This document shows, one piece after another, positions 38,101 to 64,000 of a DNA stretch of 64,000 nt. The position numbers and the translations under genes are program-made. Each line of letters opens with the position of its first letter. Position 1 is the stretch's first letter. The notes beneath the pieces are model-generated. The model did no database searches and had not been told where the DNA came from. It was given only the letters and a program-made list of their open reading frames with translations. The DNA is from Candidatus Wirthbacteria bacterium (GTDB lineage Bacteria > Patescibacteriota > CG2-30-54-11), in the NCBI GenBank assembly GCA_903889905.1, contig CAISZI010000048.1, forward strand, positions 70,668-134,667, in the 5' to 3' direction.

Positions 38101-38262
38101 GGCCAGGGCAACAAAGTGAACCGCCTTTTTACCCAAGATCGCTTGCAGTTTTTCGCCAAAAGCGCGTGCATCGACCGACGGGCAGTGGCTCAGATTGAGT
38201 CCAATGCCTTTGAACTGGAAGTGCTCGAGGCGATCAAGGTAAGGAGAAAAGTTGATCATCAA
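35143..38262 (-). CDS. multidomain SF1 helicase: unknown N-terminal domain plus DUF559 (Vsr-like PD-(D/E)xK endonuclease) plus UvrD/REP helicase plus C-terminal domain
   Basis: 1039 aa. DUF559 block FCADFVLD…VVVECDHREAHASNRDQWREEEFRRSGYVTLRF. UvrD motifs: Q-motif, Walker A APAGAGKTKT, motif II VLVDEFQDLN, YRSS, TIHATKGREF, TRAAKSL. Confidence 0.65.
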   Translation of the reverse strand: MMINFSPYLDRLEHFQFKGIGLNLSHCPSVDARAFGEKLQAILGKKAVHFVALAEPWVAINLKHCKHVVMMSDLDVDKLAKVASKLVNQVIIPARQRNIPVSFFDTLTVSAWHDESKALGTLLHQDTGTILEQLALEQFGQLLYWSNLNWHFIDKALTTAPLQTPLEQQLQTEFDARQLPYRRQVQLGRFCADFVLDMEPSPVVVECDHREAHASNRDQWREEEFRRSGYVTLRFGASEIRSNVRSCVDRILRRHLPSAQIPLIPLDRELDSSQKAAITPMDGPIRVLAPAGAGKTKTLTNRIVYLQNQGIAANHILALAFNKKAAREMRERLAAKGVRIAGSLKSDGVVIRTFHALGYEIIRDHLHWTYDEETATHEPMQLARQVVREACHVAPVHLAEAADLLLTRIQQVKTELIPLDARAIVEFEEGVYLLQPLFERFCALQSERRVLTFDDMIYLSLQALLNDASLRRELQQRFRYVLVDEFQDLNKSQLLFMHVLGLPQNNLFIVGDDDQMIYGWRGANIAHILDFPVNYPGSREFTLSTNYRSSKNLVWHSRWLIEHNQRRVAKDIQPKKQAQPGDFDVSKHASLFDQAKAAADWIRKQKQNSQSRWRDFAVLFRYHELQFPLAVIFDQLQVAHTPVNLRRLFCSAPGKLLGAYLQVVVDPDLATADDWQRLLRQPNRYLGSELIREVVDRESFVALCGRPSLEKWKQRSLATLAKQLVNVSESKAGISHAGELVRQLVDVFELKQFFQNNASSRHDIDTASDVMVLEVMATVAQAVPTAEALLELIRSTHVATGPAASLAAESEDEVTLSTIHATKGREFKYVVLLNLADSVDALSAADTEEERRVTYVALTRAAKSLLITVPQDGKLEHLRECLLNPEWSSRSAGEVDAWLRQERQRERVLIKREDELVRDLVRFFRIAPSAVDAASTATIEAQIKWAKVRQTFPVLTDSGSLFTSKQSRQFWPKGLASLRALMWRLSLREPASLQTIAAHRESLVNELFQLVTRDRIACADSLARLGAELKHRAFLDLDV

Positions 38263-41411: not shown

Positions 41412-43550
41412 TCAATCCTGGTTGCGTCGCAAAAAAATCCGCGCCAGACGGATAGCTTCATAGGAATATTTTTCACCCAGATTTTCCTTGGCCGCAACCA
41501 GCGACCAACCCGCTGCAGCAAGTGCACGGTGAATTATTTCCAGCTGACTTTCATCGGGTCGCAGATGTTCGATCGACAAATCTGGTTCCTGCTGCAACAA
41601 TTTCTCAATATGCCCAAGCACGGTGGCTGGAACCAGTCCACGCCGAGCGGCAATGGCCTCCAAACCCAAACCAGACCGAAGCAGTTCCCTTGTCTGCGAA
41701 TAGGTTACCCCAAGGTATTTGGGTGCCGGCGAGCGGGACACGGCGCGTTGAATTTCGTTCACTCCGGTTTCCCGCGCATAATCACGAACCACGCCAAGGA
41801 ATTCCAACCCAAACTGTTCCCATTTTTGGCGACCCACCCCAAAAGTTTGCAACAGACTGGTTTCACTTTGGGGAAAATAAGCGGCCATTTCACGCAGGGT
41901 TTTATCCCCAAAAATCACATAAGGCGGCACGCCACGCTGATCTGCCAGCGACTTGCGCAGGATACGCAGACGATCAAACAGAATGGGATCAACGGGCATC
42001 GCGTCAATGGATTGATCCAATCCTTTGCCAGATTTGGGTTGCATGGACGATGACAAGCTCAAACTTTGCTTCTGCTCCAGGAAATCCCTGCCTTTGGGTG
42101 TCATCAATAGCACTGGATATTCGCCGGTGCTCTGGGCCAGTAAATGCAGGGAAATTAATTGACGGATAATACTTACCAGTTCGGTTTTCTTGTGTGCCTT
42201 AAGTGTGCCAAACACTGGCAGCAAGTGGTGATTAAAACGTTCGCTGCGTTCGTCTGATTTTCCCAGCAGCACTGACGCCACATAACCAATACCAAAACTC
42301 TCACGCGTTGCCTGGACAGCCGTCAAAATCGTCCGCGTCACATCGGTCGCATCTACCTGCACAGTCTCGCCCAGGCAATTGTCACAGTTGTCACACTTGT
42401 CCCGCGGCATCACTTCGCCAAAATGCCCGAGCAAATACTGACGACGGCAAGTGGAAAGGTCTCCAAACCTCAACACTTCTTCCAACTTGGCCCAGGCTTT
42501 TTGTTGTTCGGCTTCGGTTTCGAGCTGGTCAATGAAAAAAGCGTGTTTGCGACGATCGCCGTGTGAAAAAAACAGCACACATTCCGCTGGTAGTCCATCC
42601 CGGCCAGCGCGCCCGGTTTCCTGATAATACGCCTCCACCGACTTGGGTAAATCACAGTGCACAACAAGACGAACATTGGATTTATCGATGCCCATGCCAA
42701 AGGCAATGGTGGCAATGATCATGTCGATTTCGTCCCTGATAAACTGGTCCTGCACGTGCGACCGAGTAGCGCTATCCAGTCCACCATGGTACGCCGCTGC
42801 CTTGAAACCGCTGTGCTGCAAACTCTCGGCCAGTTCCTCGGTACCTTTGCGCGAAAAACAGTAGACGATACAGCTCTGGCCACGGTATTTGTCCAGAAGG
42901 TCATGTAAACTGGTGGCCATGCCTTTTTTGGGCATTACCACATACTTCAAATTAGGCCGGTCAAAACTGGCAAGGAAAACCGCCGGCTCCCGCAGCTGCA
43001 GTTGCGTGACAATGTCGGCCCGTACCTTATCCGTGGCAGTCGCCGTCAGCGCCATCATTGGAACGCGTGGAAACCACTGCCGCAAAATGCGTAATTCGCG
43101 ATAATCCGGCCTGAAATCGTGGCCCCATTCCGAAATACAGTGTGCCTCATCAATGGCGATCAAACTGATGGGCAAGTCACGGATAAATGAGGCAAACCCC
43201 ATGGCCGCGAGCCGCTCTGGGGCAATGTACAAAATCTTGATCTGGCCCGCTTGTGCGGCGCGCTGGACTTGGGCAATTTCGGCGCCAGAAAGTGAACTGT
43301 TGATCAAAGCCACGGCCACACCACTTACCCGCAGTTGATCCACCTGGTCTTTCATCAAGGCAATCAGCGGCGACACCACGATCGCCATCCCGGTCATTTT
43401 GATCGCCGGCAGTTGGTAACACAGCGATTTGCCGCCACCAGTGGGCATGATCGCCAGGGTATCGCGTCCCTGCATCACACTGGCGATGATCTCCTGCTGC
43501 AACGGGTAAAATGAATCGTACCCAAACACTTGCTTCAATAATTCCTGCAT
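41412..43550 (-). CDS. recQ: ATP-dependent DNA helicase RecQ with RQC, HRDC and an extra C-terminal extension
   Basis: FGYDSFYPLQQEII, Walker A MPTGGGKSLCYQLPA, DEAH (IDEAHCISEWGHDFR), Zn-binding CxxC pair (CRRQ…CDNCDNC), HRDC-like region. Total 712 aa. Confidence 0.85.
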   Translation of the reverse strand: MQELLKQVFGYDSFYPLQQEIIASVMQGRDTLAIMPTGGGKSLCYQLPAIKMTGMAIVVSPLIALMKDQVDQLRVSGVAVALINSSLSGAEIAQVQRAAQAGQIKILYIAPERLAAMGFASFIRDLPISLIAIDEAHCISEWGHDFRPDYRELRILRQWFPRVPMMALTATATDKVRADIVTQLQLREPAVFLASFDRPNLKYVVMPKKGMATSLHDLLDKYRGQSCIVYCFSRKGTEELAESLQHSGFKAAAYHGGLDSATRSHVQDQFIRDEIDMIIATIAFGMGIDKSNVRLVVHCDLPKSVEAYYQETGRAGRDGLPAECVLFFSHGDRRKHAFFIDQLETEAEQQKAWAKLEEVLRFGDLSTCRRQYLLGHFGEVMPRDKCDNCDNCLGETVQVDATDVTRTILTAVQATRESFGIGYVASVLLGKSDERSERFNHHLLPVFGTLKAHKKTELVSIIRQLISLHLLAQSTGEYPVLLMTPKGRDFLEQKQSLSLSSSMQPKSGKGLDQSIDAMPVDPILFDRLRILRKSLADQRGVPPYVIFGDKTLREMAAYFPQSETSLLQTFGVGRQKWEQFGLEFLGVVRDYARETGVNEIQRAVSRSPAPKYLGVTYSQTRELLRSGLGLEAIAARRGLVPATVLGHIEKLLQQEPDLSIEHLRPDESQLEIIHRALAAAGWSLVAAKENLGEKYSYEAIRLARIFLRRNQD

Positions 43551-50206: not shown

Positions 50207-53200
50207 CTAAAACACACTCTTCCCATCCCCATAATACCCATCAAACACATGCGAGAAGATCGCCCCGCACTTCTCTTCGTAGAGTTTCTTGTCATAGATC
50301 GCCGGCAAGTGTTCGAGCGAGTCTTTAATTGCAACCTCAATTGATGCCCTGGCAAACTCTTTGGCTCTCCAATCAAGCACCAGAAGGTCTTTGAGCTTCT
50401 GAAGGAGCTCACGTGCTACCTTTTTGACATCTCCCTGCTCCTGCTTGTTGAGTTTTGGGTCTGGCTTGGTCAGGAGGTCAAAGATAGCCAGTTCTTCCTC
50501 GTCACTTAGCCCTTCCCTGACTGCTCTTTTTTCTTCCTCTTCCAGATCCGCGGCAAAGGTGACCAAGTCCTGGTAGATCTCCTCCAATGAATGGCTCCCC
50601 GCGTTGTATTCGGCGACCATGTCTTTGAATTTCTTCACCAAATCGATCCGGGTACGGTTCATCTCGAATAGATGATTCACTTTGCCTTCGAGCAGCTTCT
50701 GCAAGAGGTCAATGGCATGGCGTCTGCGGCCTTCCTCGAACTGCTTCGCGAGCTTGTCAAAGTCAATTTTGCTTAGATCCATGGGTTGGGGGGATGTAAT
50801 CGAATACCCTGTTGTCCCGATCGTGTCATCGAGAAGGCCATCTACCTTGCGGACGATGCTGGTGATATCGACATCCGGTCGACGGGATTGGATGTTCTCG
50901 GCAATGGTCAGATACAGCTTGACCCGGTCATAGTAGGCAGCTACCCTGCCATCTGGTAGAACAGCTTTATAGAGCTGGTAGCACCCCTGCGTCATCTCCA
51001 GATAGTCTTTGCGGGTCTGCTCTGAGCTCATCAGGGCTTCAGAGGCGTTGTTGACTAGTTTTAGAAGCTCAACACGCTCCTTCCCAAGCATCTCTGCCGC
51101 TTGGATGCCGAGCTTGGCACAGAATGTGTTCAGTTTATCGAATCGATCTTCCAATTCCGCCAGAATCTCGTCTTTTTCCTTGATCGGGGTATCCTCTCCA
51201 TCTCCTCCCTGGTCGGCACCATAGATTGCCAGAGCCTTCTGAAGATTCCTAAAGACACCGATGTAATCGACAATGATACCATTGGGTTTGGTCTTGAAGA
51301 CACGATTGGCCCGGGCGATGGTCTGCATCAAGGTATGGTTCTTCATAGGACGGTCAAGGTAGACCGTCGAACAGGACTGGGCATCAAAGCCAGTCATCCA
51401 CATGGCGCAGACAAAGGCAATTCGAAGAGGATGATCCGCATCTTTGAATTCTTCCGCCAAGTCTTCCTTGTTCATGCGATCCCGGTGGGGTTTGGCATCA
51501 ATGCCATACTTTCGGGCATCATCGATCTCGTTCTGGCCTTGGGAGACCACCACAGCCATGTCAGTTGATTCCATGAAGTTGATTTTCGTCTCCAATGTTT
51601 CCAGCTTCTCGTCCCTGGCGTAGTAGAGCTCTTTGCGCAGGTCCTTGATCTTGGCATCCCAGTACTTCTTGACCTTTTCGAACATGCGATAGGTGGTCAG
51701 TTTATCAATGCTGACGATCATAGCCTTGCCAGGATAGCCCCGCCCGACAATGTGATCCACGATATCGCTCGCAATTCGCTCCAGACGTTCATCCCGGGTA
51801 ATCAAGTGGTATTGCTTGGAAAAATACCGCTGGAGCTTCAATTCTTGCTCATCGCTGAGCTCCTCTTGCTCCAGTAATTCATCCAGTTTGTCCGTTAGCT
51901 CTTGCTCATCGAGCTGGAGCTCTGGAATACGATTTTCATAAAACAGTGGCACGGTGGCATTGTCATCCACAGATTGCTTGAAGTTATAAATACTGACGTA
52001 ATCTCCAAATGTCTCCCGTGTCTTTTCCTCTCCGGCACCTTTGATCAAAGGGGTGCCTGTAAAGGCAATGAAACTGGCATGGGGAAGGCCTTCGCGCATG
52101 TTCATGGCCAAGGTGTCGTATTGGGAACGGTGGGCTTCGTCAGCCATGACAATGATGTCATTGCGGTCAGATAGGAGATCCCGATCACGGAACTTGTGGA
52201 TCAAGGTAAAGACATAACGGTGATCCTCGTGCAAAAGCTTCTTCAGATGTTCTGCCGACTCAGCATGAACCTGATCTTCTGGTTCGGAGACGGCTCCCGC
52301 TCCAGCAAAATTTTGATAAATTTGTTTATCAAGCTCTTTACGGTCAGTTAGCACCACAAATGTCCAGTTACCCGGCAGCTTCCTGAAGATCTTCTGGGAG
52401 TAAAAGATCATGGAGTAGCTCTTGCCGCTCCCCTGCGTATGCCAAAAGACGCCGGCGGCACCCTGGCCCTTGGGTTTGGCTTTGAATACCTCGATGGCTT
52501 GATTAACACCCAAAAACTGATGATTCTTGGCGACAATCTTGGCGATGCCACCGCGAACTTCTACAAACAGGGTAAAATTCTCAATCAAATCCAATAGTCT
52601 CGTCTTGTCACAAGTTCCACGGATCATGGCTTCCAGGGATATCTGAGGCTTCTCGTCTTCCTTCTCTACCTTTTTCCACTGGCTGAAATGCTCCCAGGTG
52701 GCGCTGACGCTACCCATGCGGCTATCCGTACCATTGGTGAGGATGATCATGGCGTTATACCAAAACAGCTGCGGGATGGTGTCCTTGTAATCCCGGATAT
52801 TGTCATCGAAGGCTTCCTTGACTGAATGGCTGGCGGATTTGTTCTCAATAAGCACCAAAGGGATGCCATTCACATACCCGATCAGGTCCGTGCGACGGGT
52901 ATAGTACTTACCGGTGATCCAAAGCTGCGAAACCAACAAGAAGTCATTATCGTTGGGGTTATCCCAATCAATGACCCGCAGATTAACTGTTTGTTCTGTT
53001 CCTTGATCATCCTTGAAACTAACCTTGATGCCATCGTGGATGAGTGCGTAGACCTCTTGATTGGCCCTGGTTAGGCTTTTGGTACTGCGATCGAGGGTAA
53101 GTTGGGCTATGGCATCATTGAGGACTTGGGAAGGAACATCGGGGTTAAGTTTTGTCAGAGCTTCCCGAAGGCGCGGCAAGAGCAGAACATCAGCTCGGAT

Positions 53201-53326
53201 TTGGCGCCCAAGGATACTGGTTGGGCCGGGGATTTCGTCAAAACAATCGACATGGGACCATTTCATGCCTTGGAAGAGGTCAATGCCAGACTTCTCAACG
53301 AGGGAATCTTCGGAGAATGGGTTCAT
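50207..53326 (-). CDS. hsdR: type I restriction enzyme R (endonuclease/translocase) subunit
   Basis: Start at MNPFSED (ATGA overlap with the upstream gene). N-terminal PD-(D/E)xK, SF2 helicase motifs (HTQGSGKSYSM Walker A, DEAH-like MADEAHRSQ), long C-terminal helical domain. 1039 aa from this start. Confidence 0.85.
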   Translation of the reverse strand: MNPFSEDSLVEKSGIDLFQGMKWSHVDCFDEIPGPTSILGRQIRADVLLLPRLREALTKLNPDVPSQVLNDAIAQLTLDRSTKSLTRANQEVYALIHDGIKVSFKDDQGTEQTVNLRVIDWDNPNDNDFLLVSQLWITGKYYTRRTDLIGYVNGIPLVLIENKSASHSVKEAFDDNIRDYKDTIPQLFWYNAMIILTNGTDSRMGSVSATWEHFSQWKKVEKEDEKPQISLEAMIRGTCDKTRLLDLIENFTLFVEVRGGIAKIVAKNHQFLGVNQAIEVFKAKPKGQGAAGVFWHTQGSGKSYSMIFYSQKIFRKLPGNWTFVVLTDRKELDKQIYQNFAGAGAVSEPEDQVHAESAEHLKKLLHEDHRYVFTLIHKFRDRDLLSDRNDIIVMADEAHRSQYDTLAMNMREGLPHASFIAFTGTPLIKGAGEEKTRETFGDYVSIYNFKQSVDDNATVPLFYENRIPELQLDEQELTDKLDELLEQEELSDEQELKLQRYFSKQYHLITRDERLERIASDIVDHIVGRGYPGKAMIVSIDKLTTYRMFEKVKKYWDAKIKDLRKELYYARDEKLETLETKINFMESTDMAVVVSQGQNEIDDARKYGIDAKPHRDRMNKEDLAEEFKDADHPLRIAFVCAMWMTGFDAQSCSTVYLDRPMKNHTLMQTIARANRVFKTKPNGIIVDYIGVFRNLQKALAIYGADQGGDGEDTPIKEKDEILAELEDRFDKLNTFCAKLGIQAAEMLGKERVELLKLVNNASEALMSSEQTRKDYLEMTQGCYQLYKAVLPDGRVAAYYDRVKLYLTIAENIQSRRPDVDITSIVRKVDGLLDDTIGTTGYSITSPQPMDLSKIDFDKLAKQFEEGRRRHAIDLLQKLLEGKVNHLFEMNRTRIDLVKKFKDMVAEYNAGSHSLEEIYQDLVTFAADLEEEEKRAVREGLSDEEELAIFDLLTKPDPKLNKQEQGDVKKVARELLQKLKDLLVLDWRAKEFARASIEVAIKDSLEHLPAIYDKKLYEEKCGAIFSHVFDGYYGDGKSVF

Positions 53327-53330
53327 GTGA
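53281..53330 (-). repeat. copy A of a ~48-bp direct repeat comprising the hsdR start codon and first 16 codons
   Basis: 53281-53330 is about 84% identical to 54541-54590. Copy A is the authentic hsdR 5' end (MNPFSEDSLVEKSGID). Confidence 0.6.
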
Positions 53331-54453
53331 TGAAACTCAGATAATTTTCTTGATTCACGACCAGAAACGATGCCTCGGGATAGGTGGATTGAAAAATGGC
53401 AGGCGCTTTGGCCGTAGCCTTGCCCCACTTGAACTCGTACGCATCGATCTTGCCACCCTGCTCCTCGATCCAGTCGATCTCCTGCTGGTCATAGGTACGC
53501 CAGAAATAATTGCTCGTAGAAAAATGCTTATAGGTCTGATATTTGATACGCTCGCTAACGAGAAAATTTTCCCAGAGCGCACCCTGGTCATTGCGGGAAT
53601 CGAGCGGATTAAACATACTGATGACGGCATTACGCACACCATTGTCGTAGAAAAAGTATTTGGGCTTGGAGGTTAGTTCTTTGCGCAGGTTGCGGCTGAA
53701 ACCGCCGAGACGGTAGAGGGTGAATGTTTGCTCCAGGAGCCACAGGTAACGCCCAACTGTTTTGACATCGACCTCGAGCTTTTGAGCCAGCTCGGTATAG
53801 GATACCTCTGCCCCGACCTGAAAGGCGACAAGCTTGAGCAGCTTGACCAGAGTCTGCGGGCTACGGACCTGCTCCAGGGCAAATATATCCTTCAGCAGAT
53901 AAGATCCGACTAGATCGAGCAGGTACTCCTCGCGGTCTGCGTCAGTTTTTTGATTGAGCACGTCCGGATAGTTGCCATAGATGAGGTAGGAGGTCAGGGA
54001 CGATTTAAGTTCATAGGGATTGAACCTGGCAGAGAGCTCCATCTGGGACAGAGGATAGAGGTGCAGCGTTTTTTTGCGACCGACCAGCGGCTCACCAACC
54101 TGCCGGGCCAATTCAAAGGAGGACGATCCGGTAGCGATTACCCGGATGGGTTTGATCTGGTCCACGATGATCTTGAGCCCCATGCCGATATAGGGAACCA
54201 TCTGTGCCTCGTCAATCACAATGAGTTCATACCCCGCACAGAATTCCCTGATCCGGTCAAAGTCCTGTGAACCCAACACTTCCCGTACCTGAATATTGTC
54301 TCCAGACACGAGCAGATATTTCCATTTCGTGGTACTCAAGTACCGCTCGATCAGCGTGGTCTTGCCAACCCGACGGGGACCAAAGAGCAAAAGTACTCGA
54401 TTTGGCTCAAGATAGGATTCCAGATCCTGACAGTAGCGGGGTACGTATTCCAT
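53323..54453 (-). CDS. AAA-family ATPase with C-terminal DUF4143 domain
   Basis: 376 aa. Walker A GPRRVGKTT, Walker B VIDEAQ, conserved DUF4143-type C-terminal region. Stop overlaps the hsdR ATG (ATGA). Confidence 0.7.
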   Translation of the reverse strand: MEYVPRYCQDLESYLEPNRVLLLFGPRRVGKTTLIERYLSTTKWKYLLVSGDNIQVREVLGSQDFDRIREFCAGYELIVIDEAQMVPYIGMGLKIIVDQIKPIRVIATGSSSFELARQVGEPLVGRKKTLHLYPLSQMELSARFNPYELKSSLTSYLIYGNYPDVLNQKTDADREEYLLDLVGSYLLKDIFALEQVRSPQTLVKLLKLVAFQVGAEVSYTELAQKLEVDVKTVGRYLWLLEQTFTLYRLGGFSRNLRKELTSKPKYFFYDNGVRNAVISMFNPLDSRNDQGALWENFLVSERIKYQTYKHFSTSNYFWRTYDQQEIDWIEEQGGKIDAYEFKWGKATAKAPAIFQSTYPEASFLVVNQENYLSFIT

Positions 54454-54540: not shown

Positions 54541-54590
54541 AAATGCCGAATTGTTCGACGAGGTAATCTTCGGAGAATTGGTTCATCGTG
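54541..54590 (-). repeat. copy B of the hsdR 5'-end repeat (remnant start MNQFSEDYLVEQFGIS then stop)
   Basis: Minus strand reads ATGAACCAATTCTCCGAAGATTACCTCGTCGAACAATTCGGCATTTCCTTGACTGAATACTAA. This mirrors the hsdR N-terminus. Its ATG overlaps the toxin stop as ATGA, as at the true hsdR junction. Confidence 0.6.
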
Positions 54591-54957
54591 GATACACGCC
54601 TGTTGCTAAAGTCTTCAGAAAATCATCAATTCGTTGCTGAGACTCGCATTCCTGCTGGCCATGCATATAAATCTCGATGAAAACAATTTTTGCAGCGATC
54701 ACCCCAAAGGCAAACACCAGTCTCATCTTGCTTGAACCTTTGAGGCTGCGGACCATGAGGCGGGTCTTGATAATCAATAACTGTCTGGCCGTATCACGAT
54801 GGAGAATATCGTACCGATTATTGTGGTCAAAATCGACACCAACGATAAATTTACGGAAATTATCCAGATCCTGCGTCAGCGAGGCGCATTTTTTGGATAA
54901 TTTTTTCAGATCACGATCAAAAGCCGGCAGTGACTCGAACTCAAATCTCGTCGTCAT
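54583..54957 (-). CDS. RelE/ParE-superfamily toxin (Panacea-associated toxin, PanT)
   Basis: 124 aa. FxFxxxFxRDLKKLSKK N-terminus and …KMRLVFAF…IEIYMHGQQ C-terminal region typical of RelE/ParE/HigB. 17-nt overlap with the upstream antitoxin gene. Confidence 0.5.
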   Translation of the reverse strand: MTTRFEFESLPAFDRDLKKLSKKCASLTQDLDNFRKFIVGVDFDHNNRYDILHRDTARQLLIIKTRLMVRSLKGSSKMRLVFAFGVIAAKIVFIEIYMHGQQECESQQRIDDFLKTLATGVYPR

Positions 54958-55684
54958 ACTGCCTCACCGAGTAGGGATCATTGCGATAGAAAACACTTTC
55001 GTAGGAAATTTCCTCGCCGTCGTCGTGCGCCAGCCAGGGGACATCGCCATGCGAGTAGTCACTCAATTCCTTCGCCGATTTGTCTGCAAGTTGGGTCAGC
55101 ACACGATCAATCAGATCGAGCTCACGACCACTCAGTTTGGTCAAGTCAGCCACAGCGCGAGGCAGGAATTTGCGCTGGTCAAACATAAAATATTTGCTTT
55201 TGACTTCCTCCATCTCACCGTCCTGCTTCATTTGCTCAATCACCTTGATAAACTCTTTTGGGGTGGGACCATGAAGATTTTTGATATAGGTGAGGCCCAT
55301 GAGCTGTTCTTCGTATTTTTCGTAGTAGTCAAAATCGATGAAGTACAGCAATTTGTACAAAACTGTGAGACCCACGTTGGGTTTGGCGCCCACCTTGCCC
55401 AGGATATAGAGCAGGACCTGTTTGAATTTGTCCAGATGCTGCTGGGGGATATCGATGCGCATGGTCGAAGGAACGCTGGCAGGCGAAGTAGCGGCTGCCA
55501 GCGAAAAAATCTGCTCCAGTTTTTCACGTTCGGCGAGGGTCAGCGGACGCTTGCCTTGTTCAATTTTGACCAAAGTCGGACGGGAGACACCGAGCCGCGT
55601 GGCCAATTCTTGCTGCGACATGTGATATTGCTGGCGTAGTGAATGGATTTCGATGGTGGTTGGGGTAGTCATTGGAGTATCCAC
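54941..55684 (-). CDS. XRE-HTH plus Panacea (DUF4065, SocA-like) domain antitoxin
   Basis: 247 aa. HTH LRQQYHMSQQELATRLGVSRPTLVKIEQGKR, then a DUF4065-type domain (VLYKLLYFIDFDYYEKYEEQLMGLTYIKNLHGP). Confidence 0.6.
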   Translation of the reverse strand: MDTPMTTPTTIEIHSLRQQYHMSQQELATRLGVSRPTLVKIEQGKRPLTLAEREKLEQIFSLAAATSPASVPSTMRIDIPQQHLDKFKQVLLYILGKVGAKPNVGLTVLYKLLYFIDFDYYEKYEEQLMGLTYIKNLHGPTPKEFIKVIEQMKQDGEMEEVKSKYFMFDQRKFLPRAVADLTKLSGRELDLIDRVLTQLADKSAKELSDYSHGDVPWLAHDDGEEISYESVFYRNDPYSVRQYDDEI

Positions 55685-55761: not shown

Positions 55762-56901
55762 TTACAATAATTTTACAGAGACCTCTCCACTCATCAATCT
55801 TGGCAATAACAAATTCCTCGTTATTCTAAAATTTTGGCTCTGCAAGTGAAGCTTCTGAATCAAGTCAAACATTGGCCTGACAAGTTTTGAAAATCGATCC
55901 AGACAAATAACCGGAGGTTGCGAGAGCAAGTATTGGTTGAAGCAACTTTCCTGCACGCGTTGGCGTCCAGACGCCCCCGTCATGCTCTTTATTGCATGTT
56001 TTCGAAATTCGTCACTACGAGCCAATAAATATACATACTCAGGTGTAAGTGAATGTGATCGCATAACAATATATTCTGTCGATCCAAAAGCCACCGCTTT
56101 CTCGTCAGGCAGAAATTGCACAAAACCCGTTTTACCATTTTCCAGACAGGGTGTTATCCTCGCAAGTAGTGTGTCTCTATTTTGAAATTTAGCACCGCTA
56201 TTGCCTGTTCGAGATTCAACATCGGTGATTATTATTGAATCCGTTGAAAGACATCCCATTGGGACAAACGCCTTTTCTCCATCACGGGGAACAGATACTC
56301 TTGGGTTAAAATCAACACATTCAACCACTTTCTTCACCTCCCACCCCTCCGGCACCATCCCCAATTCCGTCCCCGAATCCACCATTTTGACCTTCTCATG
56401 CCCCGGGAACCGGAACTCCACAAACCACTCCCGATAGAGCCGCCTCGCCATTTCTTCCAGGATCTGGATGCGGCGGGTGTTGTTTTCGATTAGGTCGTCG
56501 TAAGCGGAAAGAATGGAGGCGATTTTCTTTTGAACATGCAATACTGGAACATCGATCTCAATCGTCGACAAATGATTTCGATTTAATGTTGGTACTCCTG
56601 CGCCTGCGTTGAAACGAGAAAAATCTAATCCAATCAATTTAAAATATACATATCTAGGGTCATTGCCCTTGAAATCCTTAACCCAAAGAGACGTATTATG
56701 GGGCCAGTACGGATCTTTAACATATTGAACCGTTCCTAACGATCCGCTGCGTCCAATTACAACGCCAGGGGCATCCGCTTTAAATTCATGATGATACCCG
56801 ATTATCGAAGTGGATCCGACCACTGGATAAATACCATCATTCATATTGATTCTTGTAAGATCGAAACCCCTTTGTAGAGTAATGAAATCATCAAGTCTCA
56901 T
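55762..56901 (-). CDS. hsdS: type I restriction-modification specificity subunit (two TRDs)
   Basis: 379 aa. Two target-recognition domains separated by conserved helical repeats (…LEEMARRLYREWFVEFRFPGHE…, C-terminal …NLLLPRLMSGEV). Confidence 0.8.
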   Translation of the reverse strand: MRLDDFITLQRGFDLTRINMNDGIYPVVGSTSIIGYHHEFKADAPGVVIGRSGSLGTVQYVKDPYWPHNTSLWVKDFKGNDPRYVYFKLIGLDFSRFNAGAGVPTLNRNHLSTIEIDVPVLHVQKKIASILSAYDDLIENNTRRIQILEEMARRLYREWFVEFRFPGHEKVKMVDSGTELGMVPEGWEVKKVVECVDFNPRVSVPRDGEKAFVPMGCLSTDSIIITDVESRTGNSGAKFQNRDTLLARITPCLENGKTGFVQFLPDEKAVAFGSTEYIVMRSHSLTPEYVYLLARSDEFRKHAIKSMTGASGRQRVQESCFNQYLLSQPPVICLDRFSKLVRPMFDLIQKLHLQSQNFRITRNLLLPRLMSGEVSVKLL

Positions 56902-57706
56902 CCGGATTCTCCATTTTCTTTAACTTTTCACCCTCAATTCTCTTCCCCGCTTTTTGGACACTATCGGGCGTCGGCAGCTGTTCGGGCATGGTGCCGCCTA
57001 GTTCTTTGATCGTCTCCCGCACCTTTTTGCCGACTTGCAGGTGGGTCAGATTGGCTTTGTCCTGACCTTTGATGCCTTCTCTCCTGAGCTTGGCTTCTGC
57101 CTGCGTCGCCCGGAATAAGTTAGCGGCCAGCTCTTCACTGCCCATGTGGTCGAGGATTTGCTGGTTTTTTTTGAGTTGTTTGCGTGCATGAATGTCTTTT
57201 TGGGACAACCCGCCGTATAGCCCCATGTAGCCGTAATTTTGAAACGTCCCAAAACTGACCACACCGGCATCGTCAGCAGCCTTGGCCAGTTTTTTGTTGT
57301 GCGTTTTCATTTCTTCGCGTAGCAAAACCCGTTTGTGATCCTCGATCATCTGATCCGCCACTTCTTGCCGGTGCGTCTGGATGGCAAAGTAAGTTTGCCC
57401 CAGCGCGACGATTTCTTTGGACGGATCGGCATTCTGAACGATCAGATAGCAGGCATAGCGAGACAACCGGATATCTTCGACCTGCCGCCTGGCTCCTGAG
57501 CCAATTTCGACCATATCGTGCACATCCTCGAAATGGTCTGCAATTGCTTGACCACTGTTTTGGCAGGCAATCTTGGCTTTATCAATAACTGGCACGAAGA
57601 AACGATACTCGGAATACCCCAAAATTTTGGAAAGTTCCCTCGCTGACCAGTATTCGGACTGATATTCATTGACCTTCTTGATCGCATCGAACTGGTTGCT
57701 GGTCAT
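56891..57706 (-). CDS. dinD: DNA-damage-inducible protein D (DinD; BRO-N/KilA-N-like)
   Basis: 271 aa. N-terminus …EYWSARELSKILGYSEYRFFVPVIDKAKIAC…SRYACYLIVQNADPSKEIVALGQTYFAIQTHRQE matches DinD. Sits between hsdM and hsdS with 11-nt and 4-nt junctions. Confidence 0.65.
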   Translation of the reverse strand: MTSNQFDAIKKVNEYQSEYWSARELSKILGYSEYRFFVPVIDKAKIACQNSGQAIADHFEDVHDMVEIGSGARRQVEDIRLSRYACYLIVQNADPSKEIVALGQTYFAIQTHRQEVADQMIEDHKRVLLREEMKTHNKKLAKAADDAGVVSFGTFQNYGYMGLYGGLSQKDIHARKQLKKNQQILDHMGSEELAANLFRATQAEAKLRREGIKGQDKANLTHLQVGKKVRETIKELGGTMPEQLPTPDSVQKAGKRIEGEKLKKMENPDET

Positions 57707-57709
57707 CTA

Positions 57710-59266
57710 TTACTCCTTGTGATTAGTAAAAATTAGCGCAACGTTCTTACTGATGGTTTCTTCCAGCCCATTCGCCTCAGTAGTCAGAAGCTCGAATTCA
57801 TCGTTAAGAGTCCTCAACTTGGCCTTGAAATCCTCATCACTGACTACTTCGCCATCGGCAATTCCAACATATAGCCCTGGATTTAGGGACCAACCTTGCG
57901 CCACGATTTCCGTAGCCGTCGCTACTTTGCAAAGCCCCTTCACATCCCGATATTTGCCGTCCGGAAAATTGGCTTTAAGCAAAGCATTATCAGAGTATTC
58001 CGGCACTTTCCCCCGATACATCCGGACAATGTCTGACAAAAACTGCAAATGTTCTTCCCCAAACTCCCGATGCGCTCGATCTACCTGCACGAAGTGATGC
58101 CGGGCATCGAGAAATAGAACATTGTCTTTGCGGTCCTGTGGCTTGCCCTTGTCCAAAAACCACAAAGTACAAGGCAACGTCACCGTATCAAAAAAATTGG
58201 GAGATATAGCTACCATCACATCTACATGCCCAGCTTCGATTAACTTCTGGCGGATCGCCATCTCACTATTGCGCGCATCGCTGGCAGAATTGGCCATGAC
58301 GAACCCGGCACGCCCAGTCTGATTGAGCGGGCTATAGAACTGCTGTATCCATAGGTAATTGGCATTGGACGTGGACGGCATCCCAAATGGAAACCGTTGC
58401 CGATCATCCTTCATCCGGTCCTTGTCCGCACCTTCATTATTGAATGGCGGATTAGCCATCACGAAGTCGCAGCGCCCGACGGCATGATGAGGATCTTCAT
58501 AGTAGCTGTTGCCGGTACGAATATCGCCATTGAGCCCATGGATGGCCAGGTTCATCTTAGCAAGGTTGGTATTGGAGGTCGTCAGCTCCTGCCCAATGAT
58601 CGAAAGCTCCGAGATAGGATTGTGCTGATGCCGTGCAACGAAGTCCGCACTTTGGACAAACATGCCACCCGATCCGCAAGCCGGGTCATAAATCACCCCA
58701 TGGTAGGGCTCGATAATCTCGACAATCAGCTTGACCAAAGATGTCGGGGTAAAGAACTCCCCACCCTTTTCCCCAGACTTCTTGTGAAACTTGCCCAGGA
58801 AGTACTCATAGATCTTGCCAAAGACATCGCCTTCAACCTCAGTCATCTCCGTGCTGTTAAACGTTTTGAGCAAGTTTAGTAGCACCTTCTTGTCTATCCG
58901 GGCATATCCGCGAGGTAAAACGCCCTTCAAATCAGTATTTTCTTTCTCTATCTCCTCCATCGCGTGGTCTACTGCCTTGGCAACATCATCACCATCCGTG
59001 AGGTTGATTAAATAAGAATAACGGGCCTCGGGAGTCAAATAGATCGCCCGACGCGCCAAAAAGTCCGCCTTGCCCACGGTTCGACGGCTGGAAGTGGCTT
59101 GCGAGCTTAGTTCCTGCTCAATCCGGGTAAATTTGACGTCTGCATATTTCAAAAAAATAAGACCCAAAACCGGCATCGTGTATTCCGATGGTTTCAGGTC
59201 CGCATTTCCCCACAATTGCTCAGCCGATTCCCACAAAGTGGCTTCGAGTTGTTTGTTATAGGTCAT
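57710..59266 (-). CDS. hsdM: type I restriction-modification N6-adenine DNA methyltransferase subunit
   Basis: 518 aa. N-terminal HsdM_N, SAM motif [10 protein letters not shown], catalytic NPPF. Confidence 0.85.
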
Positions 59267-59416: not shown

Positions 59417-59881
59417 ATGAACACCCGCACCACCCAACTCGCCCGCACCCAGCTTGACGCCACGCTCAAGCCTCTAACCAAACTTGCCTCGACTTCCCGC
59501 CCACCCAAAGGCTGGATCCGCGCCATCCGCAATGCCCTGGGCATGAGTGGCGAGCAATTGGCGCGTCGTCTCGGCCTGACCAAACAGCGCATCGGCCGCA
59601 TCGAACAAGACGAAGCTGGGGATGGCATCACCTTCAAAACCATGCGCCATGTCGCCGAGGCGCTGGATTGTCATTTTGTCTATGCACTCATCCCCCGCAC
59701 CAGCCTCGAACAGTCCGTCCGAGACCAGGCTGCCAAAGTTGCTGCCAAACGACTGGCGCAAGTAAGCCACTCAATGATGCTCGAGAACCAACAGCTAACT
59801 GATGCAAATCAAACAAAAGCCTTGCAGTCCGAGGTCGAACGACTTATTGCCTCTTTGCCACGGACACTCTGGGATGACTAA
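59417..59881 (+). CDS. mobile mystery protein A (HTH-XRE family, TIGR02612-like)
   Basis: 154 aa. PKGWIRAIRNALGMSGEQLARRLGLTKQRIGRIEQDE…ITFKTMRHVAEALDCHFVYALIPRTSLE matches the mobile-mystery-protein-A pattern. Confidence 0.6.
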   Translation: MNTRTTQLARTQLDATLKPLTKLASTSRPPKGWIRAIRNALGMSGEQLARRLGLTKQRIGRIEQDEAGDGITFKTMRHVAEALDCHFVYALIPRTSLEQSVRDQAAKVAAKRLAQVSHSMMLENQQLTDANQTKALQSEVERLIASLPRTLWDD

Positions 59882-60458
59882 ATCAAATTCCTTCGGCACC
59901 ACCCCGATATCGCCGGATGAGCTGGACGGACTCAAACTGACCCATATCACTACAACGGAACAGCTCAATCGCTTCGAACAGGACAACATCACTGAGGCCA
60001 TGGACTGGCTCTCACGCCGTAAACCAACCAAGATATTGAACGAATCCTTTCTCAAATCCCTGCACCAGCATATGTTTGGGCTGGTGTGGAAATGGGCCGG
60101 AAAATTCCGCGCCACCGACAAAAATATTGGCATTCCGTGGCAATACATCGCGGTAGAAGTCCGCAAATTATGTGACGATACGCAATTTCAGATCGACCAT
60201 CAATCCTACTCACCCGATGAGATCGCTGCGCGCTTTCATCACCGCCTGGTACAGATCCATCCATTTCCAAACGGTAATGGCCGCCATAGCCGACTGATAA
60301 CAGACATTCTGCTGCAAAATGTATTACAGAAGCCGCCTTTCACCTGGGGCGGTGCAGCACTGCGTGACGCCGACGATCCTCGGCGTCAATATATTGGTGC
60401 GCTGCAAATGGCGGACAAGGGAGACATGGAAGCGCTGATGAAATTCGTGCGGTCCTGA
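59874..60458 (+). CDS. mobile mystery protein B (Fic-domain protein, TIGR02613-like)
   Basis: Start MTKSNS overlaps the mmpA stop by 8 nt. Fic motif HPFPNGNGRHSRL. ~194 aa. Confidence 0.65.
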   Translation: MTKSNSFGTTPISPDELDGLKLTHITTTEQLNRFEQDNITEAMDWLSRRKPTKILNESFLKSLHQHMFGLVWKWAGKFRATDKNIGIPWQYIAVEVRKLCDDTQFQIDHQSYSPDEIAARFHHRLVQIHPFPNGNGRHSRLITDILLQNVLQKPPFTWGGAALRDADDPRRQYIGALQMADKGDMEALMKFVRS

Positions 60459-60491: not shown

Positions 60492-61769
60492 CTATCTCTT
60501 GAGCATCATCATCACCAACCCAATCATCCTCTCCTTGTCCACCGGTTTGCTCTCGGCAATCAGCAGTGTCAGTGCGGTCAGGGCTTCGGGTGTAATCCGG
60601 GTCATGTCCAGCAGCCGCGCCCGTAGCAATAACCAGACAAAGGCAAACGCACCCGAGCGCTTGTTGCCATCGAATTCGATGGAATCAAAATCAGGATTAT
60701 GCAATTTCTCCCATAGCCCCAAAAACTAGATCGTGCCGGATTTGTATTGGTAGATGACCAGGCCTTGTTGGGGGGTATTCTTTGGCATGGTTACTTCTTC
60801 TCGGCTTTAGTGATTGGAGTCTTGAGGTATTTCTGGGCGACTCGGTCAAAATCCGACTCAAATGATCTATCCTGATCGATTCTGAACTCGTCGTATTCCT
60901 TCTCGGCTAGTTGCTTGGCGACGTCCGATGAAATCTTGCCGGAATCGGCCAATATCTCATAATCATTGAATTGCAAAAATGCGTCCAGCCTGATAGCCCA
61001 ATCTTTCATGGTCATGGTCTTGTGGCGTTCGGCCTGGGATTCGGCGTAATACGGAAACATCGGTTTTGAGGATTTTTCCTTTGGGACTGTTCTTCCAAGT
61101 TGTCAGGCCCATGTGCGGCCTGGAACTACTCGCACGTGAGGCGACGATCTCGGCGGCAGTGTGACCAGTGATGGCCCAGTGCAATTTGTTCTGGACGGTT
61201 TGGTAGAATTGGTGGGTGATGTCGGCCTTGGGGTCATAATCAATACTGCATTGCGCGTAGATATCGGTGATTTTTTGATAAAACCGCCGCTCCGACGCCC
61301 GGATTTCACGAATTCGTTCGAGTAACTGATCAAAGTAATCCTTGCCAAAGAAGTTGCCGTTTTTGAGACGCTCGTCGTCAAGGACAAAGCCCTTGATGAT
61401 AAATTCCCGAAGCGTTGTGGTTGCCCAGATGCGAAATTGAGTCGCTTTTTGGGAATTGACACGATAACCGACGGAAATGATGGCGTCGAGGTTGTAAAAA
61501 TTGGGTTCCCTCTCAACCATTCTCTCGCCTTCTTTTTGAACTATTCGAATTTTTCGAATAGTTGCCGCTTCATCTAGCTCGCCGCTCGCAAAAATCTCCT
61601 GGAGATGGTAGTTCACCGTATTAACTTCCACATCAAACAATTCAGCCATGGCTTTTTGGGTCAGCCAGACAGTTTCGTTTTGAACCAACACCTCCATTTT
61701 CACGTCGCCGTCGGGTGTCGTGTAGAGAAGAAATTGTGAAGATTGCGTCACGAGTTCTTTTTTTGCCAT
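60492..61769 (-). pseudogene. rhuM: disrupted rhuM-doc (RhuM/Fic-DOC) fusion gene carrying at least two frame changes
   Basis: The 61769-60963 frame encodes the RhuM N-terminal ~230 aa (…NLDAIISVGYRVNSQKATQFRIWATTTL…). The RhuM C-terminus (KDWAIRLDAFLQFNDYEILADSGKISSDVAKQLAEKEYDEF) continues in another frame (61060-60791). A Doc/Fic core remnant (IEFDGNKRSGAFAFVWLLL…) lies in a third frame (60722-60492). Confidence 0.5.
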
Positions 61770-61851: not shown

Positions 61852-62120
61852 CTAAAGAATCGGGCAAAAAAACACCCAACCAGGGTGGTTCAAAATGACT
61901 TCTTCGGCAATAGCCACAAGCCGATTCGATCTAAGCTCACGGTCCAAGACGAGCTCCGCGAGTCGAATGGCTGGGCCACTTGGTTTAGAACCAGAAATGA
62001 GACATTTGGGACAGTATAAAAAAGGGTGTCTCAATTTGTGAGTAAGCAAGCAAGTAAGTTGTCTTATCGGAAGTTTAATGGTATTTTATTAGTATCGCCA
62101 AACTCCAATTGAGGTAGTCT

Positions 62121-63212
62121 TTGTATACTCCCAAATTCACCATTACCACATCTATTGCCCAGGCATTGATGCGGATAGAAGCACACAAACAAGCGATAAG
62201 CGACCTGCCTATCACGCCGGATGTCCTGCTCCATCTGCGGGAAACCGCGCGTCTTGCAACGACTCATTATTCGACTGCGATTGAAGGTAATGACCTGGAA
62301 GAAGTAGAGGTTAAAAAAGTTATCCAGGGATCATCCAACATTCAGGGAAAAGAACGTGACACCGCAGAAGTCAAAGGCTATTATGCCGCACTCCAGAGAG
62401 TAGAACGACTCGCTGGAAAAAAATACCCTACCGAAAAGGATATCCAGACTATCCATGCACTCGTGATCGGTGGTGGCAGAAACCAGGTGAAACCTACACT
62501 CTATCGGACAGAACAGAACGTCATCAAAGACAGTCGATCCGGGACAATAGTCTACCTGCCACCCGAGGAAAAAGACGTTCCCCAGCTTATGGAGGATCTT
62601 GTTCTCTGGATAAAAAGCAGTTTGTACGAGCAGATCCCTCTACCACTCCGTGCTGGCATCGCCCATTATCAGTACGTCACGATCCACCCCTATCTGGATG
62701 GTAATGGCAGAACCGCCCGCCTGCTCACTACACTCATCGCTCATCAAGGCGGATATGATTTAAAAGGTATCTTTTCTGTGGAGGAATACTATGTGCAGAG
62801 CCTCCAACAATACTACGATGCCCTCTCACTCGGACTTTCCCATAATTATTACTTCGGCAGGCATGAAGCAGATATCACTCCCTGGCTAGAATACTTCTGC
62901 GCTGGAATGGCGGAAAGCTTTGATAAAATTCATCGTCAGGCGCAGAAGGCTGCAAAGGCAGGGCAACAGGATTTCTCACCCATTCTCCGTGACTTGGATC
63001 CGAGGCAACGAAAAGTACTGAGTCTATTCGTTCACAGTACCAGGATCACGACACGAGAGATCGCCACTTGTCTGAATATTTCGACCCGCGCTGCCAGTGC
63101 ATGGTGTCAAAAATGGGTCAATGACGGATTCCTTCGGATCATGAATCCAGCCAAAAGGAATCGTTCGTATGCACTGGGAAAGCAGTACGAAAGTTTGGTT
63201 GTTTATAGCTGA
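62121..63212 (+). CDS. Fic-family protein (Fic/DOC adenylyltransferase-like with C-terminal wHTH)
   Basis: 363 aa. Fic motif HPYLDGNGRTARLL. N-terminal inhibitory-helix-like segment (…TAIEGN…). C-terminal winged-helix region. Confidence 0.75.
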   Translation: MYTPKFTITTSIAQALMRIEAHKQAISDLPITPDVLLHLRETARLATTHYSTAIEGNDLEEVEVKKVIQGSSNIQGKERDTAEVKGYYAALQRVERLAGKKYPTEKDIQTIHALVIGGGRNQVKPTLYRTEQNVIKDSRSGTIVYLPPEEKDVPQLMEDLVLWIKSSLYEQIPLPLRAGIAHYQYVTIHPYLDGNGRTARLLTTLIAHQGGYDLKGIFSVEEYYVQSLQQYYDALSLGLSHNYYFGRHEADITPWLEYFCAGMAESFDKIHRQAQKAAKAGQQDFSPILRDLDPRQRKVLSLFVHSTRITTREIATCLNISTRAASAWCQKWVNDGFLRIMNPAKRNRSYALGKQYESLVVYS

Positions 63213-63218
63213 GATCTG

Positions 63219-64000
63219 ATGATAACCATCACTGACGAATACCTTGATCTTTATGCCTCTCTCTTTCGTGGTCGAGAGGAAACTTACGCACGCCATTGGG
63301 AAAAAAATGGGAGAAGCGGATACAGTCCTGCCTACGATCTGGACTGGTCAAAATTCATGGCGTTCAAAGCTCAGGGTGGATCGCTGAAAGACTTCCCAGA
63401 CAAAACACCTTTGCCGCTATCTCGGCTAGTGATCAAAAATCACCTCCTGGGAAAGCATGCGATCGGTATCTATCCACTCCTCGAGAATAATGAATCGTAT
63501 TTTATTGCTGCCGATTTCGATGGGCAGGATTGGATAGGCGAAAGTCGAGAACTCCTCAATTCATGCAAAGCCTATGGGCTGCCAGCGTATCTTGAGAGAT
63601 CACGATCGGGAGGAGGGGCGCATATCTGGTTATTTTTCGCGAATTCTTATCCAGCTGCAAAAAGCAGGCAGATCATCTTTGCACTCTTACGAAAAGTCTT
63701 GCACGTTTCTGAATTTGATAAGGAAATCAGTTTTGACCGGGTGTTTCCAAACCAGGATTATCATTCCGGCAAGGGGTTCGGTAACCTCATCGCCCTGCCG
63801 CTGAACGGAATTTCAGCAGACCAAGGAAACAGTGTTTTTCTGGATCCAGAAAACCTCACACCCTATACAGATCAATGGGAATACCTTTCGCATGTGGAAC
63901 GGATAAGTTCCGACACTCTCGACCGAGTGCTTGATCGAATTGCTGGTTATAGCCCCTTCAAAACGACAGTACGTGGAACGACAGAACCTCAAGCGTCTCT
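63219..64000 (+). CDS. 5' portion of a TOTE-like conflict-system protein: archaeo-eukaryotic primase (AEP) domain (gene runs off the window)
   Basis: Open frame from ATG 63219 to the window end (260 aa, no stop). Sequence …LFRGREETYARHWEKNGRSGYSPAY…FIAADFDGQDW…AYLERSRSGGGAHIWLFF…FDRVFPNQD…GFGNLIALPLNG closely follows the conserved blocks of TOTE AEP-domain proteins. Confidence 0.55.
   Translation, partial: MITITDEYLDLYASLFRGREETYARHWEKNGRSGYSPAYDLDWSKFMAFKAQGGSLKDFPDKTPLPLSRLVIKNHLLGKHAIGIYPLLENNESYFIAADFDGQDWIGESRELLNSCKAYGLPAYLERSRSGGGAHIWLFFANSYPAAKSRQIIFALLRKVLHVSEFDKEISFDRVFPNQDYHSGKGFGNLIALPLNGISADQGNSVFLDPENLTPYTDQWEYLSHVERISSDTLDRVLDRIAGYSPFKTTVRGTTEPQAS

Follow-up and report, generated by a model that had tools for sequence, protein, structure and literature searches.

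The insertion sequence (IS) excision enhancer of Escherichia coli, IEE, has been described as a 'Z1568-like' archaeo-eukaryotic primase (AEP) fused to a superfamily 2 (SF2) helicase (PMC9943667). As a DNA polymerase, it joins ends through microhomology and displaces strands, and its C-terminal domain is a DNA-dependent ATPase that shows no unwinding and is required for synapsis of 3' ends (PMC9943667). Genetic studies have reported that IEE stimulates the transposase-dependent excision of IS3, IS1 and IS30 family elements (PMC9943667; bioRxiv 10.1101/2023.06.07.543989). In this study, we analysed a 64,000-nucleotide stretch of contig CAISZI010000048.1 from a Candidatus Wirthbacteria bacterium, hereafter the window, which ends inside a gene of the IEE family located directly downstream of a gene for a SoFic-type Fic AMPylase.

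Several other described systems bear on this locus. The SoFic protein of E. coli is a toxin, which is neutralised by the 47-aa antitoxin AS1 encoded just downstream (PMC12249575). The name of the TOTE conflict systems stands for TPR, OB, TBP and Effector, as given in PMC12458937, which cites Aravind, Iyer and Burroughs (2022), and DRT7/UG10 is presented in bioRxiv 10.64898/2026.04.18.719102 as a defence protein using an AEP domain. An earlier note on this stretch of DNA had assigned the gene at its end to a TOTE system, and the tightly linked SoFic gene upstream went unmentioned in it.

The cut-off gene and its predicted complete product

The reading frame starts at ATG 63219, the first start past the in-frame TGA at 63210-63212, and continues without a stop to base 64000, giving 260 codons. 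The remainder of the gene must therefore lie beyond the window edge, as the earlier note had stated. All six peptide blocks that it had quoted for an AEP domain of the TOTE-named family are present in the translation, and the profile search that it had proposed as a check, run here on the 260-aa fragment, gave a significant match to PF22548 (AEP-TOTE; E = 7.3e-78). With a score of 261.7 bits versus a cutoff of 27, this match is far beyond chance. Fragment residues 8-236 aligned with profile positions 2-229 of 230; the AEP domain thus covers residues ~8-236, and a linker begins at ~240-260. The AlphaFold2 model of the fragment, built from a 30-sequence alignment, reached a pLDDT of 89.6 and a pTM of 0.85, with the last ~20 residues forming a low-confidence linker beyond the AEP domain. 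The best solved structures for this model were the Prim-Pol domains of CRISPR-associated primase-polymerase (CAPP; 7nqe/7p9j/7nqd), with target-normalised template modelling (TM) scores of 0.78-0.81 and E ~3e-14, followed by LigD PolDom and Prim-PolC. All of the top 24 PDB matches were AEP-type primase/polymerase domains, except for the uncharacterised protein HP0184.

The sequence of IEE (ECs_1305 / Z1568, 786 aa) was taken from the genome of E. coli O157:H7 Sakai, and the fragment was 41% identical to it across 241 aa (E = 3e-58). IEE itself scored 329 bits on PF22548 and has an architecture of AEP, ResIII/DEAD and Helicase_C domains; the family name 'Z1568-like' is reportedly that of Iyer et al. 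in 2005. Alignment with IEE located the residues of the active site (Table 1), and D99, D101, H135, D173 and Y85 were all invariant in the 30-sequence alignment. A tyrosine at the sugar-selector position goes with a preference for deoxynucleotides (dNTPs), as can be compared with Y100 of human PrimPol. The fragment is a member of PF22548 with an intact active site and an AEP fold.

The gene is a new, truncated member of a large known family, for which a Pfam model and one characterised member already exist. None of the closest sequences in two protein libraries was more than 61% identical to the fragment, and the family comprises 5,537 representatives at 50% identity (E <= 1e-3). It had been called little-studied in the earlier note, a description that does not suit a family including the genetically and biochemically characterised E. 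coli IEE. The database label 'AEP-TOTE' thus stands for the family to which the IS-excision enhancer of E. coli belongs, so that IEE biochemistry supplies a working mechanism for thousands of unannotated genes; such genes now carry the labels 'DEAD/DEAH helicase' or 'restriction endonuclease subunit R'. The present gene extends this family to a Wirthbacteria-like lineage related to the candidate phyla radiation (CPR).

Relatives of the gene, sampled as 116 related loci, indicated what may lie beyond the window edge. Their complete open reading frames (ORFs) fall into length classes of ~709-745, 775-870, 990-1000 and 1115-1143 aa. Representatives of the classes were scanned, and AEP and ResIII/DEAD domains were found in 8/8 and Helicase_C in 7/8, which agrees with the helicase that the earlier note had expected in such proteins. 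Its typical length of more than 1000 aa, however, belongs to another part of the family. In a neighbour-joining tree of AEP domains, the window's gene nests in a clade, mostly of Patescibacteria and Bacteroidota, in which the complete members are all 709-744 aa, whereas the 990-1140 aa classes form a separate branch. Metagenome relatives of at least 53% identity with intact ORFs measure 711-717 aa. The complete protein is most likely ~709-744 aa in length and not >1000 aa, and from this clade the gene would be expected to extend ~1.35-1.45 kb beyond the window edge. The part beyond the edge would be composed of a linker and an XPB/UvsW/RadD-like SF2 ATPase. In the nearest relative, the helicase half is similar to XPB/Rad25, SauUSI-like 7clg, UvsW and RadD, which fits the DNA-dependent ATPase activity without unwinding of IEE.

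Some relatives differ from this layout. The longer classes (990-1143 aa; L012, L013, L026) have C-terminal extensions of 270-400 aa past the helicase with no Pfam match, and an Acidobacteriota member (L076:7059-9923) ends in a NOV_C (nuclease-like) domain instead. Short AEP ORFs of 236-246 aa were considered as a split two-gene design, which was ruled out because tblastn revealed frameshifts, stops or deletions in collinear genes.

Considering all the above results, we propose that the gene probably encodes an IEE-type primase-polymerase fused to an SF2 (XPB/UvsW-like) ATPase. From the 41% identity to IEE we infer the enzymatic activities. The AEP domain would act as a Mn2+/Mg2+-dependent DNA polymerase preferring dNTPs, capable of gap filling, strand displacement and extension from microhomology-paired 3' ends (template switching/end joining). 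The helicase-like domain would serve as a DNA-dependent ATPase that holds DNA and brings it together, rather than as a classical unwinding helicase. As for the biological role, the target may be replication or transposition intermediates of selfish DNA, which would be aborted or excised, and the protein would act as the product of the distal gene of a SoFic operon in the chromosomal defence island of a Wirthbacteria-like (CPR-related) bacterium.

Several points weigh against this proposal. The C-terminal two thirds of the protein would lie outside the window, and the helicase half is predicted from relatives. IEE belongs to a different major branch, and at 41% identity its role in IS excision need not apply here. 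Among the ORFs annotated here, none next to the gene encodes a transposase or belongs to an IS element, and the literature searched reports an anti-phage phenotype for no family member. Furthermore, ~19 of ~94 relatives are disrupted, which gives perhaps a one-in-five chance that this copy is decayed too. The disruptions include frameshifts (for example in L010, L022, L027 and L106), in-frame stops with homology going on in the same frame (L031, L046 and L097) and internal deletions (L015, L043 and L047), the other disrupted relatives being L030, L042, L058, L063, L072, L073, L080, L098 and L108. Most of the decayed copies nonetheless align to the helicase half of L003, in support of the AEP-helicase architecture. 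Such a rate could reflect frequent pseudogenisation of a costly gene or could partly be due to assembly errors.

The SoFic gene upstream and its pairing with the primase-polymerase

The gene directly upstream encodes a full-length SoFic-type protein, with residues 13-353 matching positions 30-352 of 361 of PADLOC profile PDLC03963 (6.4e-53). The catalytic motif HPYLDGNGRTAR is present and fits the Fic motif HxFx(D/E)GNGRxxR, as is an N-terminal inhibitory-helix-like motif, STAIEG, and a protein identical to the 363-aa product is on record as a called gene. No terminator-like site was found between the SoFic gene and the AEP ORF, which together with the 6-nt gap (Table 1) implies co-transcription. 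The two genes are linked in operon-like fashion, with SoFic as the first and the AEP gene as the second gene of the operon. DNA 100% identical to the SoFic-AEP junction region, within window positions 61973-63724, occurs on two contigs of 1.6-1.75 kb from separate metagenome assemblies, L085 and L086 (ENA ERZ18626762 and ERZ27313102), so the same strain or element recurs in independent samples.

The two genes are in the same frame, and read-through of the TGA, or an alternative code joining SoFic to AEP, was considered. This was rejected, since other SoFic-AEP junctions lie in other frames and long intact housekeeping ORFs such as RecQ (100% homologue coverage) suggest that the standard genetic code is used. 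Among the first 278 proteins retrieved there were no SoFic-AEP fusions, and the N-terminal extensions of P0141 and P0276 had no match in the neighbour set.

The pairing is not confined to the window. A SoFic-type gene lies directly upstream and co-directional in 10-11 of the 86 loci with enough upstream sequence, and elsewhere in the ±10 kb flanks in 2; the SoFics paired with relatives are all full-length by PADLOC. The closest relative, L109, has an orthologous pair, in which SoFic is 67% identical and AEP 87% identical, the latter over a sequence that ends after 54 residues. In L109 (1946-1975) a single TGA separates SoFic and AEP in the same frame, as in the window, and this arrangement is probably shared by descent; the other SoFic-AEP junctions among relatives are in different frames. 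Identity between the window's SoFic and those of other AEP-helicase pairs is only 22-27%; the latter are 40-88% identical among themselves, and the SoFic of L081 represents a third distinct lineage. Across the SoFic-paired groups, the AEP domains are 41-55% identical. As at least three SoFic lineages are paired with AEP-helicases, the pairing has been formed, or the partner replaced, at least three times.

Genomic neighbours and alternative explanations

The genes around the relatives were surveyed, with an operon-like neighbour defined as one within 200 nt on either side. In a Pfam census of 88 such neighbours at 54 loci, AbiEii (8) and Fic (7) were the most frequent, followed by AbiEi, Schlafen/AlbA_2, HipA and parts of restriction-modification (R-M) systems, and 20 of the 54 loci had no operon-like neighbour on either side. 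The largest BLAST neighbour cluster was present in 9 of 73 related loci. Genes downstream of members of the window's own clade are not conserved, and most of them lie on the other strand. The earlier note had expected further partner genes, and no conserved partner emerged from the 73 loci, nor any recurrent TPR, OB or TBP gene from the 54. Rather than forming TPR-OB-TBP operons, most of the family's genes stand alone or immediately follow a toxin-type defence gene. In at least 8 loci, the slot that SoFic has here, just upstream and on the same strand, is filled by an AbiEi/AbiEii toxin-antitoxin pair; loci with AbiEi/AbiEii include L009, L041, L052, L057, L064, L065 and L069, and L041 and L057 also have a long (>1100 aa) co-directional ORF further upstream.

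This survey bears on two alternatives. The gene might be the effector of a canonical multi-gene TOTE system, with TPR-OB/TBP-like partners just past position 64000, in keeping with the Pfam name 'TOTE conflict system, AEP domain'. We regard this as very unlikely, since TPR, OB/S1-CSD and TBP families are absent from the 25 most frequent Pfam families of the census, no neighbour cluster rises above the 9 loci, the downstream genes of the clade show no conservation, and TPR-OB or TBP-like partner genes do not occur in the 14 kb upstream here (50.2-63.2 kb). Without recurrent neighbours of this kind, this branch of the family gives no support to the multi-gene TOTE reading. A tentative idea, which we consider unlikely though clearly less so than TOTE, is that SoFic and the PrimPol-helicase form one coupled, repeatedly assembled two-gene defence module, in which the processing of invader DNA (phage, plasmid, transposition intermediates) would be coupled to an AMPylating abortive-infection effector, with AbiEii-type nucleotidyltransferase toxins as alternative partners. 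The PrimPol-helicase might detect invader DNA, or process it, and keep the SoFic toxin under control, or it might neutralise SoFic in the manner of an antitoxin; alternatively, SoFic might be an abortive-infection effector backing up the polymerase. The close same-strand spacing without a terminator, the preservation of the pair in L109 and the preference of SoFic for this one position (10-11 of 86 loci, with 2 elsewhere in the flanks) are in favour of such a module, the three or more paired SoFic lineages suggest repeated selection for adjacency, and the PrimPol-helicase occupies the slot of the E. coli antitoxin AS1 (PMC12249575). On the other hand, SoFic is present in only ~10-13% of loci, the others having AbiEi/AbiEii, RhuM, Schlafen-like genes, HipA or nothing; 20 of 54 loci are without an operon-like neighbour, E. 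coli IEE has no Fic neighbour, no fusions were seen among the 278 proteins, and SoFic is a single-gene system with its own inhibitory helix motif. Moreover, R-M and defence loci in general often carry SoFic, AbiE and RhuM as hitch-hikers. The pairing of SoFic with the PrimPol-helicase is therefore suggestive, not proof. If followed, it may lead to a new two-gene immune module or to the regulation of SoFic toxins lacking AS1, and if the module is true, the large IEE/AEP-TOTE family would gain a defence role beyond IS excision.

Two further explanations concern the polymerase itself. A role as CAPP in spacer acquisition is the least credible of all, even though the fragment scores best in PADLOC against 'CAS-associated PrimPol' (1.7e-65), CAPP Prim-Pol domains are the only relatives with solved structures, and a CAPP-helicase type exists. 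IEE matches the same PADLOC profile with 488 bits over its full length, so this is in effect an IEE-family profile, and the NCBIfam CAPP model NF040561 (PrimPol_Msp) gave 98.1 bits, which does not reach its cutoff of 200. There is no CRISPR array in the 64-kb window and no cas gene among the annotated ORFs, no Cas family recurs near the relatives, and the CAPP paper describes most homologues outside CRISPR loci as PrimPol-helicase proteins of mobile elements. It is also highly improbable that the gene serves an integrated plasmid, phage or other mobile element as its replicative primase-helicase. Fusions of primase-polymerase and helicase are typical of mobile-element replicases, IEE is located in the integrative element SpLE1, and 116 plasmids carry a homologue; however, phages almost entirely lack the family (2 weak partial matches among 50,697 records) and few plasmids have it (116 of 72,556; annotated only as DEAD/DEAH helicase), which points to cargo and not to a core replicase. 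A blastn search against plasmids yielded only a 69-nt conserved patch. Mobile-element replicases use helicases of the SF3, DnaB or D5 type, whereas the helicase here would be SF2 XPB/UvsW-like. In addition, the neighbours include R-M and toxin genes but no integrase or phage genes, the rest of the chromosome seen here is of housekeeping type, and the decay of ~20% of relatives is unlike an essential replicase.

The defence island and comparison with known systems

The last 14 kb of the window is a defence island (Table 1), which bears out the conflict or defence setting proposed in the earlier note. Its Type I R-M locus is interrupted by three inserted genes, for the ATPase, the Panacea antitoxin and the Bro-N protein. 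As listed, the hsdR ORF overlaps the ATPase ORF by ~105 nt, so the true hsdR start is probably further in. An unannotated 124-aa ORF (54583-54957) adjoins the Panacea antitoxin downstream and could be the toxin of this antitoxin. With the HTH and short Fic genes, the island has another Fic-type module, at a distance of 1.7 kb from SoFic. GC content is slightly lower in parts of the island, with 0.467 at 54-58 kb and 0.470 at 62-64 kb versus 0.49-0.53 in most of the window. The remaining window is ordinary chromosome, with guaA, recQ and a UvrD-like helicase gene, and the 1039-aa product of the last looks like a nuclease-helicase fusion. From the identities of its RecQ (Table 1), the host is probably a Wirthbacteria-like bacterium related to the CPR.

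Table 1. Positions in the window of the cut-off gene, its active-site residues and neighbouring features (HTH, helix-turn-helix).
Feature	Position	Strand	Basis or remark
IEE-family (Z1568-like / Pfam AEP-TOTE) primase-polymerase-SF2 helicase gene (helicase half predicted), N-terminal 260 codons	63219..64000	+	PF22548, IEE identity, AEP fold
Y85 (TAT) = IEE Y128, sugar-selector/steric-gate position	63471..63473	+	Alignment to IEE
AEP motif A, D99-F100-D101 (GAT TTC GAT), metal-binding aspartates = IEE D142, D144	63513..63521	+	Alignment to IEE (offset 43)
AEP motif B histidine H135 (CAT) = IEE H178, contacts incoming nucleotide	63621..63623	+	Alignment to IEE
AEP motif C aspartate D173 (GAC) = IEE D216	63735..63737	+	Alignment to IEE
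SoFic/AEP junction TGA GAT CTG ATG, 6-nt gap, same frame	63210..63221	+	Sequence
SoFic-type Fic AMPylase gene, 363 aa, TTG start; Fic domain and C-terminal winged-helix region	62121..63212	+	Fic 8.9e-18; PADLOC SoFic
RhuM	60963-61769	-	
Short Fic	59802-60458	+	HTH + Fic pair matches PADLOC candidate PDC-S04, 76 bits
HTH gene	59417-59881	+	Overlaps short Fic
hsdM (Type I R-M)	57710-59266	-	
Bro-N protein	56891-57706	-	Between hsdS and hsdM
hsdS (Type I R-M)	55762-56901	-	
HTH-Panacea (SocA-like) antitoxin	54941-55684	-	Between hsdR and hsdS
AAA_14/DUF4143 ATPase	53323-54453	-	Between hsdR and hsdS; PADLOC candidate PDC-S01, 490 bits
hsdR (Type I R-M)	50207-53428	-	GTG start as listed
RecQ	41412-43550	-	67% identical to Candidatus Wirthbacteria bacterium CG2_30_54_11, ~50% to Patescibacteria/Chloroflexota
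UvrD-like helicase, 1039 aa, N-terminal DUF559 (Vsr-like endonuclease)	35143-38262	-	Outside defence island

Among the described systems, the DRT7/UG10 RT-PrimPol shows weak PrimPol similarity to the fragment (PADLOC RT_UG10_small, 2.7e-05). DRT7/UG10 has a reverse transcriptase domain, which the window fragment lacks, and the partner domain of the window's relatives is an SF2 helicase. CAPP, represented by the Marinitoga Prim-Pol domain (7nqd/7nqe/7nqf/7p9j), provides the closest solved fold (TM 0.78-0.81; sequence E = 3e-10), its common motifs with the window protein include the GNLIxxPL loop, and a CAPP_A 'helicase type' is known. In contrast, the identity is only ~21-23%, the window is without CRISPR or cas, and CAPP-TPR has TPR and PriCT domains where the relatives have the SF2 helicase. 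The likeness to TOTE systems consists of the Pfam name of the AEP domain family and the defence or conflict context, whereas TPR-OB/TBP partners are neither upstream here nor recurrent at the 54 related loci.

The SoFic/AS1 system of E. coli resembles the present locus in that the upstream gene is a full-length SoFic-type gene with an intact catalytic motif; in E. coli the 47-aa antitoxin follows, whereas here and in at least 10 other loci a PrimPol-helicase follows. IEE and the window protein belong to the same PF22548 family (329 versus 262 bits) and have identical catalytic residues and the same steric-gate tyrosine, and the AEP and SF2 helicase architecture of IEE is common to the relatives of the window protein. 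IEE differs in its place on the other main tree branch, its N-terminal extension of ~45 aa and its length of 786 aa, and it sits in SpLE1 amid IS elements with no Fic neighbour. The window gene, unlike IEE, is located behind SoFic, and the island around it contains Type I R-M genes and belongs to a CPR-related bacterium.

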